The position numbers and the translations under genes were made by a program. From a virus (lineage: Duplodnaviria > Heunggongvirae > Uroviricota > Caudoviricetes), in the IMG/VR virus record IMGVR_UViG_2684622670_000009, positions 20,476-84,475 of that record: a stretch of DNA of 64,000 nt. One strand, given 5' to 3'. The notes under the pieces were generated by a model that saw only the letters and a program-made list of their open reading frames with translations, was not told the DNA's origin and did no database searches. Of the stretch, positions 13,624 through 17,172 are shown piece after piece (positions within the stretch are counted from its first letter, which is position 1; each line of letters begins with the position of its first letter).

Positions 13624-14325
13624 TTATTCTGATTCTTGCTCAAAAAACGCGCTAATGAGAGGAAGCCAATCCTCTGACACTTCACGCGGTCGCGGTTTGC
13701 CGTGGAAGAAGATTATTCGGCAGTCTTTTGGTAATGCCCCATTCCCCCTGGAGTAGCGCGCACTTGCATATTTCGAACCAGGTTCCACAACATCGGCCTT
13801 GTAACTTACAAACCATCCCGGATACAGATCCTGAAATGCTGGTGTGTCATCGCCCATAACCTTCCGTAAGAAGCCCTGATCACCCCAGCACTCAGTAGTG
13901 ACACAACGAGAAATCCAACCTTCCGGATCTTGCCAGAATGAACTCCAGATATGCGCTTTTACACTATTTGGTATCCACAGTGCACCGCTGCCACGATATT
14001 GTGGATGGTAAAAATCTCTAAGCATGGTGAAGCTGGTCGGTGGATTCTCAAGGATTGGGCGTATATCACCGGCAATAACCGTGTCCAAATCCAGATAGAA
14101 CAGATCATCGGTTATATCCGGTCGGAACAACTCGATTTTCGCCCACCAGCCACGGCACTTTTGCCACTGGTTGATCAATGGGACAACTTTGACGCCAGGT
14201 ACATGTAAACGCTTCAGGTCTGTCAGGCAAATAATTTCATAGCCTTTTGGCAGTTGATTAACCAGCCACTGCACATCGGAAGCGTTATAGTCACCACCAG
14301 AGCGAAGAACTAAAGCAATCTTCAT
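13624..14325 (-). CDS. Putative glycosyltransferase-like protein (DxD motif)
   Basis: 233 aa with LDLDT motif; start overlaps the phosphatase stop (ATGA); family assignment tentative. Confidence 0.45.
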
Positions 14326-14999
14326 GCTGCACCATCACCTTTCACTTTCATTAATGTCAGGTTTCCGCAAAATACGGCACCAGTGTCGATATAATGCTGA
14401 TTCCAGAATGCCTTCGGGCTTTTCACCGGAGTATGACCAAAGATAAAACGATCTGCGCCCGAAATTTCGCCACCAATATCATCCATCGAATCACTGATAC
14501 GCTCGCGCGCCCAGACAACATTGAAAAGTGGCACCTCCTTACCGAATTGGTATTCATTATCCGGATAGTCGGCATGGGCTATAACGATAGTTTCTCGCCC
14601 GGTGTTCAACTCAATGATATAGGGTAGACGTCTTACCAACTCCACCAGCGCCCTGGCTAATATTTCCTGATCAGTGTCCAGCATGAAGAACCATTGTCCG
14701 CCATTCATTAGCCAGTTATTCACGTTGCCATCGGGGCTTAACGCATCAATCATCAGCCGCTCATGGTTGCCCATGACCGCTCTGAACCATGGCATCTGCA
14801 ATAGCTCCAGACATTTAACATTTTCGGTGCCGCGATCGATAAGGTCGCCGACCGATATCAGTAAATCCTGCGCAGGGTCAAAATCAACACGATGGAGTTC
14901 GGACATCAGTCTGGTGTAGCAACCATGCAGATCACCAACAACCCAGACATTCCTGTATTTGGTACCGTCGATACGGTGATAAATTGTGGGTGCCATCAT
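14322..14999 (-). CDS. Ser/Thr protein phosphatase (metallophosphatase, lambda PPase-like)
   Basis: Motifs GDLHG, GDLIDRG, GNHE; strong resemblance to lambda phosphatase from memory; start taken at an internal ATG (track ORF begins at 15014). Confidence 0.85.
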
Positions 15000-15622
15000 G
15001 TATTCTTCAGCCATTCTTTAAGAGTCATCTGCGGAATACCTCCCATTTTCCCGCATGAAACAACGTCAATCTGCTCACGCGCTGACTGGAATAACAAAGG
15101 CAGGTGACTTAGATTTTTTGGCGTGCCGCCGGAGTGAACGCGCGGTTCTTGCGTAGCGTCAACGCCCACCAGGGCAACATGTTTGAATCCGATATGGAAA
15201 GCTAGGTTCAGAGCGCCGTATGCACTATTGCCGCTGGCAATTTCATTCACATCTTCACAAAGTCCGAAATGTGCGGACCAGCGCCACGCCCACCACTCGG
15301 GAGAGTTCGTATTTTTTGGCTCTGTGCCTCGCTCAGCCACTCGACGGAAGCACAGAACACCGTCTCTGACTTCACGTTCTTTAACATCAGGTAGCGCCAG
15401 GCAATAACAAACACCGCGGCGACGGCGACCACGACCAACGCGCCGCATATTGTCTGGCGATGGATCAAGGGTGAAAAAATAAGAAGCGCGGTTAAGCCAG
15501 TCGATGGCCCCGTTGACCGCTATAATCGGCACTCCACGCGGCGCAACAAAGTTTGCGGCGCTTGGGCCACTGCCGACGATAATAACGCGATCACTGCCTC
15601 TAAATTTATTCTTGGGAAACAT
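14996..15622 (-). CDS. Hypothetical Rossmann-like protein (paralog A; GSGPS...AVN motifs)
   Basis: 208 aa; VIIVGSGPS and PIIAVNG motifs shared with the adjacent paralog; overlaps upstream paralog 3' end by about 100 nt. Confidence 0.5.
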
Positions 15623-16149
15623 TGAATTGCACTGCTCCTACTTGCATTCAAAATATGTAAATCTGCATGTTTTTTGCGGGTATCCAGGAACTGCTGTTGC
15701 CATTTTGAAATAGACACCTGCGTTGGATTCCGTAGTGCTTGAGGGTGCGCACCATGCCAATGGAGGCCGTTTTGCAGAGAACAGTCATAACCGACTAATA
15801 CAACTACTTCAGCCCCTGACTCTGCCGCCAGACTGATAGCCTGCGCGCCGCTATTTACCCCTTCAGCTGGTCCACAATATCGCCTGTACTCCAACGAAAA
15901 TGATTTCGCCGCCGCCAGGTTGGCTGTCACTTTGCGGAATCTCCCTTCCGGTATGATGGATCCGTATTGCTTCCACCATGACAAATCACCTGCGTATAAG
16001 GCATAAATGTCATCGAACATCTGCCTGGAATTGTTGACCGCGATGATTGAACAGCCAGTTTTTTCTATAGCAGCACAGTCCTCACGAGTGAGTGACGGAC
16101 CGCTACCGATACAAAAAACCGTCTTAGTCGCCCGGGGCGGTATGTTCAT
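15520..16149 (-). CDS. Hypothetical Rossmann-like protein (paralog B)
   Basis: FCIGSGPSL...IIAVNNS, NSGAQAISLA, VVLVGYDCS...HWHG; start taken at internal ATG (MNIPPRATK). Confidence 0.5.
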   Translation of the reverse strand: MNIPPRATKTVFCIGSGPSLTREDCAAIEKTGCSIIAVNNSRQMFDDIYALYAGDLSWWKQYGSIIPEGRFRKVTANLAAAKSFSLEYRRYCGPAEGVNSGAQAISLAAESGAEVVVLVGYDCSLQNGLHWHGAHPQALRNPTQVSISKWQQQFLDTRKKHADLHILNASRSSAIQCFPRINLEAVIALLSSAVAQAPQTLLRRVECRL

Positions 16150-16345
16150 TCTCAGCTGCAAATTCGGCCTCCAGGCGAGCATTCATTTCAGCGATTACCG
16201 GGTCCACTACAGCATCTGTTTCCTGTTCATTACGCGGCATGACCGATGCCAGCGATTCATAATTAACCTTGGATGACACGATTATTCTCCCGATGTTAAG
16301 GTGCGCTACCTCAAAGGACGGCAATGCACTAATTAATTTATTATT

Positions 16346-16924
16346 TTAAGCAGCGGACAACCACTTGTCGCCGTTCAATATATGCTCAATAGCCTCGCCT
16401 TTTTTAAGGCTTATGTATTCCAGGATGGCGGTAATCGCTTGTTCTGCACCATACGCAAGAACAACGTAGTAACCTTCCTCTCTAAGCCTGCGCATCCAGG
16501 CGATCTGCTCTTTCGTCGGGGCTTTACCATTTGGTTCTTTAAGCTCAATTCGCATGCCGTGATAAATACCGCATGCTTTATCGAGACTCATGTCCGGATA
16601 ACCTTTTTTCTGCCCTTCAGCCTTCATTTTCCCGGCGGTTGCTTTTGAACGCTTCCCTCCGTTAGGCGTTGCATGCAACAGCTCATAGATTTCAGGGTGC
16701 TTGCGTTCGAAGTAATCAAAAATGAAAACCTGTTCGAAGTGCTCGCAATTTCCGTCGCGCAGATCTGGGTTCTTTGCCAGTGCTGCAAGTGCCTTCGCAT
16801 GTGGCGAAACTTCTTTTACCGGCCCAAGCGATAAGAATGGATCCTTTTGGTTTTTTGGTCTGGACCACCCCTTATTTCTACGCTCACTAAAAGCCTGAAA
16901 CTCTTCCTCAGTAAAGCGCAACAT
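16346..16924 (-). CDS. VRR-NUC-like nuclease domain protein
   Basis: 192 aa; C-terminal GYPDMSL...HGMRIELKEP fits a PD-(D/E)xK / VRR-NUC pattern; coupled to upstream TraR-like gene. Confidence 0.45.
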   Translation of the reverse strand: MLRFTEEEFQAFSERRNKGWSRPKNQKDPFLSLGPVKEVSPHAKALAALAKNPDLRDGNCEHFEQVFIFDYFERKHPEIYELLHATPNGGKRSKATAGKMKAEGQKKGYPDMSLDKACGIYHGMRIELKEPNGKAPTKEQIAWMRRLREEGYYVVLAYGAEQAITAILEYISLKKGEAIEHILNGDKWLSAA

Positions 16925-16926
16925 AA

Positions 16927-17172
16927 TCAGTCAAACTCTGCCGGTCGCATGCCATATTTACGCTGTTTTGCTGCCTGCTCTTCCCTGTGCCATTGCGCAC
17001 AATCAGCGTCACAATAAATGCCTGATTCAATCGGCTCATTGCAGTAACGACACTTCCCTGTAAATACCTGGCTCACGACCTGTGCCTGCTTTCTGATGTT
17101 ATCGATGGCCATGTCTTTGAGAGCTTCTAATTGATTCATGCTCAGCTCTGCATCATCAACACGTTCTGCCAA
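16927..17172 (-). CDS. TraR/DksA-type C4 zinc-finger protein
   Basis: 81 aa with CRYC...CDADC; GAGGA Shine-Dalgarno. Confidence 0.6.
   Translation of the reverse strand: MAERVDDAELSMNQLEALKDMAIDNIRKQAQVVSQVFTGKCRYCNEPIESGIYCDADCAQWHREEQAAKQRKYGMRPAEFD

Follow-up and report, generated by a model that had tools for sequence, protein, structure and literature searches.

What do the genes that bacteriophage P1 carries under the label "putative morphogenetic function" contribute to the phage? The question is raised here by a 3.5-kb segment, positions 13624-17172, of a 64,000-nucleotide stretch of viral DNA (the window; positions 20,476 to 84,475 of the IMG/VR record IMGVR_UViG_2684622670_000009). 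The window belongs to a P1-like phage, with 96% DNA identity to P1, and the segment aligns at 96% identity over its whole 3.5-kb length with positions 78602-82150 of P1 (NC_005856) and with P7, SJ46, RCS47 and other Punavirus genomes. The P1 record places seven genes here, transcribed from the minus strand in the order pmgL, pmgM, pmgN, pmgO, pmgP, ppp and pmgQ, and attaches the same note to every one of them; in P7 the region appears as upf81.0, upf81.2, hdmA-D ("head morphogenesis") and ppp. The region is an object already known and annotated, with its function uncharacterised. A first-pass annotation, made from the window's sequence alone, had reported six open reading frames (ORFs) on the minus strand, all of which are found where it placed them, but the region holds seven, the missed one being pmgN (16124-16279), which overlaps the start of pmgO. 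P1 is among the best-studied phages, yet all seven genes have been labelled only with that putative function; for three of them, pmgO, pmgP and pmgQ (O, P and Q below), a concrete role is now proposed.

The account favored here, plausible though still tentative, is that O, P and Q, expressed late, form a cassette for the assembly of a short glycan on a protein of the virion, probably one of the head, from host nucleotide sugars. In P1 the three genes would be one instance of a glycan-building cassette that is mobile among phages, into which ppp has been inserted and in front of which pmgN lies. Their positions in the window are as follows.

pmgO, 15520..16182, minus strand: Maf/Cst-like (MptE-like fold) predicted glycosyltransferase, 220 amino acids (aa); possible alternative start at M12 (16149)
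pmgP, 14996..15622, minus strand: distant paralog of pmgO with the same predicted fold, 208 aa; weak similarity to WaaZ, the Kdo (3-deoxy-D-manno-octulosonic acid) III transferase
pmgQ, 13624..14325, minus strand: GT8-like DxD (retaining-type GT-A) glycosyltransferase, 233 aa

Folds and families of PmgO, PmgP and PmgQ

The PmgO and PmgP proteins of the window, modelled as separate proteins, yield confident AlphaFold models (predicted local distance difference test scores of 87.7 and 94.5, respectively). Both have the Maf flagellin glycosyltransferase (5mu5) as their top structural match, with Cst-I/II and eukaryotic sialyltransferases next in rank, and the Foldseek matches of the PmgP model include Maf, the MptE HPPK and Cst-I/II. 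The predicted fold is of the Rossmann-like alpha/beta type common to Maf, Cst and MptE. At the level of sequence, the MptE-like Pfam family PF01973 (formerly DUF115) is matched at E<=0.01 by 26 of 27 PmgO relatives (best 1.7e-11) and by 31 of 37 PmgP relatives (best 8.6e-7), and PHROG 2111 matches PmgP at 8e-131. The first-pass comparison of the pair to Maf and sialyltransferases, offered as tentative and weak, is upheld by these family matches and by the structural match to 5mu5. As catalytic-core enzymes of about 200 aa with a Maf/GT42 sialyltransferase-like fold, PmgO and PmgP would be expected to transfer a CMP (cytidine monophosphate)-activated ulosonic acid.

The resemblance to characterised enzymes has clear boundaries. 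Maf proteins are about 600 aa long and possess N- and C-terminal substrate-binding domains, whereas PmgO and PmgP are cores of about 200 aa; the alignment to 5mu5 covers 163 of 632 residues, and the multi-domain architecture is not present in either phage protein. The genomic surroundings of Maf, namely flagellin genes and those for CMP-pseudaminic or CMP-legionaminic acid synthesis, are found in none of the O/P/Q loci with gene content examined. Cst-I/II (CAZy family GT42) and the eukaryotic GT29 sialyltransferases match PmgO and PmgP in structure, but the sequence similarity is not significant (E about 1 for the profile against Cst-II); the GxGPSL and NSG...LxGYD motifs are collinear with those of Cst-II.

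PmgO and PmgP are distant paralogs with one predicted fold, in keeping with the earlier claim of paralogy. BLASTP aligns 36 residues of the two at E=0.004, and reciprocal cross-hits between hidden Markov models (HMMs) of their families range from 1e-6 to 1e-9, the PmgO model having been built without P0046, a natural O-P fusion protein. A separate hhalign comparison of the two family profiles was discarded as an invalid test of paralogy, one of the profiles having contained this fusion. The motifs that had been listed as common to the pair hold up in part: GSGPS and IIAVN are exact in both proteins, the later ones are degenerate (NSG versus NSA; LVGYDCS versus LVGVDAT), and HWHG occurs in PmgO only.

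A fold this widely distributed raises the question of whether the two proteins are glycosyltransferases at all. They might instead be MptE/TPK-like pyrophosphokinases, or other nucleotide-binding enzymes, in a small-molecule pathway, a reading that would suit the name of the Pfam family, taken from archaeal 6-hydroxymethylpterin diphosphokinase, and the Foldseek probability of 0.97-0.99 for PmgP against 8sd5. We consider this very improbable: for both proteins it is the glycosyltransferase Maf that matches best, the PmgO and PmgP types are fused to a GT8-like transferase or accompanied by one in nearly all loci, and their surroundings contain GT2 enzymes and sugar-type methyltransferases, with no pterin or thiamine genes nearby.

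The assignment of PmgQ depends on its family more than on the single protein. PmgQ alone matches no Pfam family at E<=0.1, the Glyco_transf_8 model included; PHROG 1962, labelled 'glycosyltransferase', matches it at 1e-127. A profile of 52 PmgQ relatives searched against the PDB matches members of GT8, with the Skp1 alpha-galactosyltransferase 6mw5 at 5.6e-7 glycogenins at about 1e-4 and 5gvv at 2.5e-4. The DxD motif (D79-L80-D81) is invariant in the 52 homologs, H208, G209, P211 and P213 are nearly so, and an hhalign alignment with E. coli WaaJ (E=1.8e-4, 155 columns) superimposes both the DxD and the C-terminal H-x-G-x-(K/R)PW motif, which also align with 6mw5. The family differs from the GT8 enzymes proper (WaaJ/WaaO, glycogenin, Skp1 alpha-galactosyltransferase) in its shorter length, about 200-230 aa, and in that lack of a Glyco_transf_8 match. 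Matches of the same profile to polyubiquitin were rejected as an artefact of summing repeats, each domain contributing about 3 bits. The designation of the DxD protein as a glycosyltransferase is supported by the GT8 structures and by the WaaJ alignment across the DxD, and PmgQ would act as a GT8-like retaining hexosyltransferase, probably with a UDP (uridine diphosphate)-hexose donor. As judged from sequence and predicted structure, the first-pass enzyme assignments appear to be correct at the level of fold and superfamily.

Composition and genomic setting of the cassette

Outside P1-like elements, ppp, pmgL, pmgM and pmgN are absent and O, P and Q stay together, such that the six-gene functional module proposed initially contracts to three genes. 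The trio co-occurs in 17 species-level genome loci and in further prophages, with carriers among the Enterobacterales, Pseudomonas, Zhongshania, Microbulbifer, Methylophilaceae, Ochrobactrum, Martelella, Brevundimonas and a Bacteroidota metagenome-assembled genome. The loci thereby span Gamma-, Beta- and Alphaproteobacteria and Bacteroidota, and the named hosts are without exception Gram-negative. In a lambdoid prophage of Citrobacter rodentium, O, P and Q are contiguous, without ppp, between the lysis genes and terS. The gene order varies (O-P-Q, O-Q-P, Q-P and O-Q), and Q is missing from a few loci only, the majority of them cut by a contig end. Linkage extends to gene fusion and to the acquisition of a methyltransferase domain, as in the following reading frames.

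O-P fusion P0046, L102 8001-9131: 376 aa
Q-O fusion, L142 6965-8248
Q-MptE-like fusion, L118 1944-3239
ORF with a central methyltransferase domain, L141 7096-8556: 486 aa

Accessory genes of the type expected around glycan assembly recur within the cassette. A methyltransferase, SAM (S-adenosylmethionine)-dependent or of the FkbM type, often lies inside it (L094, L099, L100, L106, L138, L141 and L188), and in metagenomic phages additional GT2 glycosyltransferases are found between O and Q (6.7e-20 against chondroitin synthase in L117; 3e-4 in L129). A nucleotide-sugar synthesis gene was recognised in none of the O/P/Q loci examined. This gene content reads as the signature of a variable glycan-assembly locus. 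Inspection by eye of capsid-adjacent metagenomic cassettes also picked out sulfotransferase-like, radical-SAM-like and ATP-grasp-like ORFs (L110 2620-3165; L117 1107-2066; L131 2403-3599; L140 5623-6321), which hint at chemically elaborate glycans. An IMG/VR scan with a PmgQ profile, in which a distant PmgQ sequence was placed first, recovered at least 546 PmgQ relatives; the corresponding scan with a PmgP profile returned P1-like contigs only.

The most informative result concerns the position of the cassette within phage genomes. In five prophages (those of Zhongshania, L094; Ochrobactrum, L104; Pseudomonas, L105; Martelella, L106; and Onishia, L107) with the order TerL-portal-protease-capsid, the cassette starts 1-250 nt after the major capsid gene, of the HK97 type (PF05065), and stops short of the genes for head-tail connectors. 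Similar arrangements recur in a synteny sample of 45 non-P1 viral loci retrieved from IMG/VR. An HK97-type capsid ORF ends 1-250 nt upstream of the PmgO-like ORF in 14 of the 45, with a 1-kb gap in one more, and in another 12 a Gp13-like (PF20036) capsid gene is followed by a small methyltransferase-like ORF and then by Q-O. The cassette consequently lies downstream of the major capsid gene in 27 of the 45 loci, and does so with two unrelated capsid families. In other loci it is placed beside portal or protease genes, or after holin/endolysin/spanin genes and before terminase; all of these phage positions are in late operons. The initial impression of a module with no obvious virion function is difficult to reconcile with a cassette that, embedded among head genes, follows directly on the major capsid gene in 27/45 viral loci and five prophages.

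Known virion glycosylation systems follow a similar logic. In mycobacteriophages of the Che8/Corndog type and in chlorovirus PBCV-1, virus-encoded cytoplasmic glycosyltransferases are expressed with the structural genes and are dispensable in the laboratory, and the O/P/Q cassette would be their counterpart by analogy. It differs in drawing on other enzyme families (Maf-like and GT8-like) and in its Gram-negative hosts. The trait of transferase genes beside the capsid gene in a late operon is found in the cassette family (27/45 loci, five prophages) and not in the P1-like window.

None of the O/P/Q loci examined adjoins LPS (lipopolysaccharide; waa), O-antigen or capsule genes, or genes for DNA base modification. 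Both halves of the first-pass suggestion, glycosylation of DNA or of the cell surface, are opposed by this pattern, as by the capsid-gene synteny. For DNA glycosylation, in which the transferases would hypermodify phage DNA against restriction, the prospects are scarcely credible. Hypermodification is not known from P1 DNA. Glycosylation of DNA containing 5-hydroxymethylcytosine is indeed carried out by phage GT-A enzymes with a structural relationship to GT8, but they always cluster with C5-methyltransferase/5mYOX or ThyS-type genes (bioRxiv 10.1101/2023.12.21.572611), none of which are found in the examined O/P/Q loci. Moreover, P1 deletions without a plating defect were also without an antirestriction phenotype (PMC9024508), and pmgL-pmgQ are listed as non-essential from that study (PMC10695390).

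Modification of the cell surface is the main alternative to a virion glycan, although we judge it unlikely. In this scheme the substrate of the three transferases would be lipid A-core or a different glycolipid of the envelope, modified during lytic growth on the cytoplasmic side of the inner membrane; a WaaZ-like extra Kdo and a GT8 hexose, for example, could truncate or mask the LPS core and limit superinfection or the loss of progeny on debris. The P1 receptor is LPS core glucose, and overexpression of waaZ truncates the LPS core. Consistent with such a role are a weak match of the PmgP family to WaaZ Kdo III models, together with a faint PF27901 match on P0046, the resemblance of PmgQ to the GT8 LPS core glucosyltransferase WaaJ, and the restriction of named hosts to Gram-negative bacteria. 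It is opposed not only by the lack of any neighbouring waa, O-antigen or capsule genes but also by the position after capsid genes of two families, which would be unusual for seroconversion or receptor-masking genes, and by late expression, which leaves scant time for new LPS to reach the surface.

A different class of acceptor, non-virion proteins of host or phage such as surface adhesins with Ig-like domains, is suggested by the clearest non-phage context of these genes. This is a chromosomal island of Pseudescherichia (L101 1-13359; also L088-L092), in which O, P and Q are interspersed among four intimin/invasin-type Big_1/IAT_beta genes, an arrangement conserved in five species-level genomes; Big_1 genes are again found near P and Q in Serratia plymuthica (L189 1-7603). 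The Big_1 proteins of Pseudescherichia point to a protein acceptor, and the adhesins are possible acceptors themselves. Maf, the fold match of PmgO and PmgP, sets a precedent, as Maf enzymes glycosylate flagellin, a secreted protein. As a general explanation this is nonetheless quite improbable, given that most loci are phage structural modules without an adhesin gene and that inspection of the P1 region showed no gene of the Big_1 type.

Expression, proposed donor sugars and probable acceptor in P1

Expression of the cassette late in infection would be consistent with the regulatory elements of the window. Two features at the head of the transcription unit are relevant here.

pmgN, 16124..16279, minus strand: 51-aa ORF with a GTG start behind a GGGAGA Shine-Dalgarno sequence; PHROG 2350; known from the P1 annotation
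PpmgN promoter-like site (16343-16371) and C1 operator Oppp (16323-16339), 16323..16371, minus strand: from the P1 annotation, operator match and promoter scan

The operator, which matches the C1 consensus with 3 mismatches, and the sigma-70-like promoter together separate pmgL-pmgM from pmgN-pmgQ, and more C1 operators flank the region at 17230-17246, 13606-13622 and 13557-13573. Across the window, the C1 consensus ATTGCTCTAATAAATTT has 12 matches at <=3 mismatches (e.g. at 11466, 27233, 47843 and 49994) versus 0.39 expected, which in sequence terms indicates a P1-type immunity network. The region thus comprises at least two C1-repressed lytic-cycle units, pmgL-pmgM and pmgN-pmgQ, both predicted to be silent in the lysogen. 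Because C1 operators and a promoter are present in the window, transcription is expected in lytic growth, with C1 repressing the genes in the lysogen, and this repression in turn argues against lysogenic conversion. The description of the whole region as a single translationally coupled string is correct within pmgN-pmgQ, where consecutive genes overlap (N/O by 59 nt, O/P by 103 nt, P/ppp by 19 nt and ppp/Q by 4 nt), but the promoter and C1 operator cut off pmgL-pmgM. In P1, CRISPR interference (CRISPRi) and single-gene deletions classify pmgL, pmgM, pmgO, pmgP, ppp and pmgQ as non-essential, and pmgN as essential by CRISPRi only and non-essential by deletion (PMC10695390). The CRISPRi result for pmgN may reflect a polar effect on the operon.

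The likeliest sugar for PmgO and PmgP would be Kdo, drawn from host CMP-Kdo, because the cassettes examined bring no nucleotide-sugar synthesis gene that could be recognised and the named hosts are all Gram-negative. By the same reasoning, the donors in general would be housekeeping nucleotide sugars, as the cassette occurs across widely divergent Gram-negative hosts and carries no synthesis genes with it; among CMP-activated sugars Kdo alone is universal, which makes it the candidate for Maf/Cst/WaaZ-like enzymes. Apart from MptE-like, WaaZ (the enzyme that adds Kdo III to the LPS core in E. coli K-12; GT73; TIGR04437/PF27901) is the one named family matched repeatedly by PmgP relatives, and its donor, CMP-Kdo, is universal in Gram-negative hosts. 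The RefSeq/PHROG label 'alpha-2,3-sialyltransferase' probably names the wrong sugar, because most of the carriers' hosts would be expected to make no CMP-sialic acid, and the present account would correct this misleading database entry.

In P1, then, the three enzymes would act in the cytoplasm, before or during assembly, and attach a glycan of 2-3 sugars to a protein of the virion, most likely a head protein. The enzyme folds and families, the joint occurrence and fusions of the genes, and their capsid adjacency are shown by the comparisons; we infer a virion protein as acceptor and CMP-Kdo and a UDP-hexose as donors. The modification would be dispensable for plaque formation on laboratory E. 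coli and would matter instead for particle stability, adhesion or evasion of recognition.

Several observations weigh against this account. In the P1-like window the cassette is flanked by the baseplate genes and pmgR/S, away from the capsid gene 23. The word stem 'glycos' is absent from a 3-Å-class cryo-electron microscopy paper on P1 (PMC12810830) and from the P1 virion proteome paper, and no glycan on P1 particles is reported in the P1 literature searched. The L094 capsid protein, the one capsid protein checked, has no C-terminal extension of the type glycosylated in mycobacteriophages. In a Pantoea-like chromosome (L187 7001-7633), a solitary PmgQ-like gene is found between lpdA and acnB, with no O, P or phage genes nearby. 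On the enzymatic side, the PmgO and PmgP fold is also found in pyrophosphokinases, and the window proteins themselves score 22.5 bits (PmgO) and 20.4 bits (PmgP) against PF01973, under its gathering threshold of 34.6.

The proposal of Kdo, in particular, draws on a weak WaaZ similarity and on the argument from donor availability. TIGR04437 matches PmgP with 13.6 bits (E=0.031) against an equivalog cut-off of 200 bits, and is matched by 8 of 37 PmgP-family members, the best at E=0.0039, far below the cut-off. Alignments by hhalign cover the NSx...LG...G-D region with probabilities of 17% and 8%, and the PF27901 (WaaZ_KDO_III) match on P0046, which has a PmgP-like half, is a faint precomputed one. 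The similarity lies far below the level of family membership, and LPS gene context is lacking at the O/P/Q loci.

Literature searches on pmgO/P/Q, on Maf/DUF115 proteins in phages and on glycosylated capsids returned no functional study of these genes and no description of this capsid-linked cassette. A bolder generalisation, which we regard as improbable, would hold that many tailed phages of Gram-negative bacteria, P1 included, O-glycosylate the capsid with a short glycan of Kdo (or another CMP-activated ulosonic acid) and hexose, by means of a minimal Maf-like/GT8-like cassette and housekeeping sugars. If true, it would represent the first virion glycosylation in phages of Proteobacteria and the first Kdo-type protein glycosylation. 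Should particles prove to carry glycans, a trait known from the virions of actinophages and giant viruses would also belong to phages of Gram-negative bacteria, with bearing on phage stability, mucus and surface adhesion, antibody recognition in phage therapy, and P1-type vectors.

The pmgO/pmgP overlap and neighbouring genes

The remaining features of the region, and one gene further along the window, are listed below.

pmgO/pmgP overlap, 15520..15622, minus strand: 103 nt, with pmgP in the -1 frame and an in-frame A_AAT_TTA heptamer at 15601-15607
ppp, 14322..15014, minus strand: lambda NinI/PrpA-type Ser/Thr metallophosphatase
pmgM, 16346..16924, minus strand: VRR-NUC-like nuclease, a separate function
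pmgL, 16927..17172, minus strand: DksA/TraR-like zinc finger, a separate function
dbn (P1 name), 22117..23115, minus strand: possible GT-B glycosyltransferase, on weak sequence evidence

The overlap between the paralogs, estimated earlier at about 100 nt, pairs conserved with variable coding sequence: where one frame specifies the conserved C-terminus of PmgO, the other specifies the variable N-terminus of PmgP, and at the other end the roles are swapped. In all six adjacent O-P pairs pmgP is in the -1 frame, with overlaps of the form 3n+1 that range from 43 to 133 nt. A -1 slip at the A_AAT_TTA heptamer would join PmgO to PmgP, and in-frame X_XXY_YYZ heptamers are present in 4 of the 6 overlaps against a background of 0.0026 per codon, or about 8-16% per overlap; they vary in sequence and position, and the L003 and L087 pairs contain none. 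A programmed -1 frameshift that yields an O-P fusion like P0046 is a low-probability lead from these sequences.

The phosphatase, VRR-NUC and TraR-like designations of the first-pass annotation are broadly right. Ppp matches Metallophos with 58.6 bits (cut-off 21.5) and PHROG 246, and reaches 278 bits (6.8e-83) against NF008516, under the 326-bit cut-off, so that it is close to that family and not an equivalog. PmgM scores 21.3 bits against PF08774, below the cut-off of 23.8, and matches PHROG 5702 ('Holliday junction resolvase') at 5.4e-27; PmgL matches PHROG 54 (DksA-like zinc finger) at 1.2e-13 and contains a Cys4 pattern. A PADLOC scan for defence systems matched none of eight proteins. 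The ppp gene is absent from all non-P1 O/P/Q loci and intervenes between pmgP and pmgQ only in P1-like phages; it is a passenger inserted in that lineage, not part of the cassette, and pmgL, pmgM and ppp are neighbours unrelated to O, P and Q.

The second glycosyltransferase-like gene noted earlier at 22117, dbn, is less secure than that description implied, with a sub-threshold match to Glycos_transf_1 (25.0 bits, cut-off 26.4) and no sequence match in the PDB. The phage may have in dbn a fourth glycosyltransferase, one without linkage to the cassette. On the other side of the segment, pmgS (12061-13322 in the window) is represented by two ORFs (12579-13322 and 12061-12633) as opposed to the single 420-aa pmgS of P1, the split being caused by a 1-nt deletion in a T-run (about 12689) relative to P1; the gene is either a pseudogene or the product of a sequencing error.

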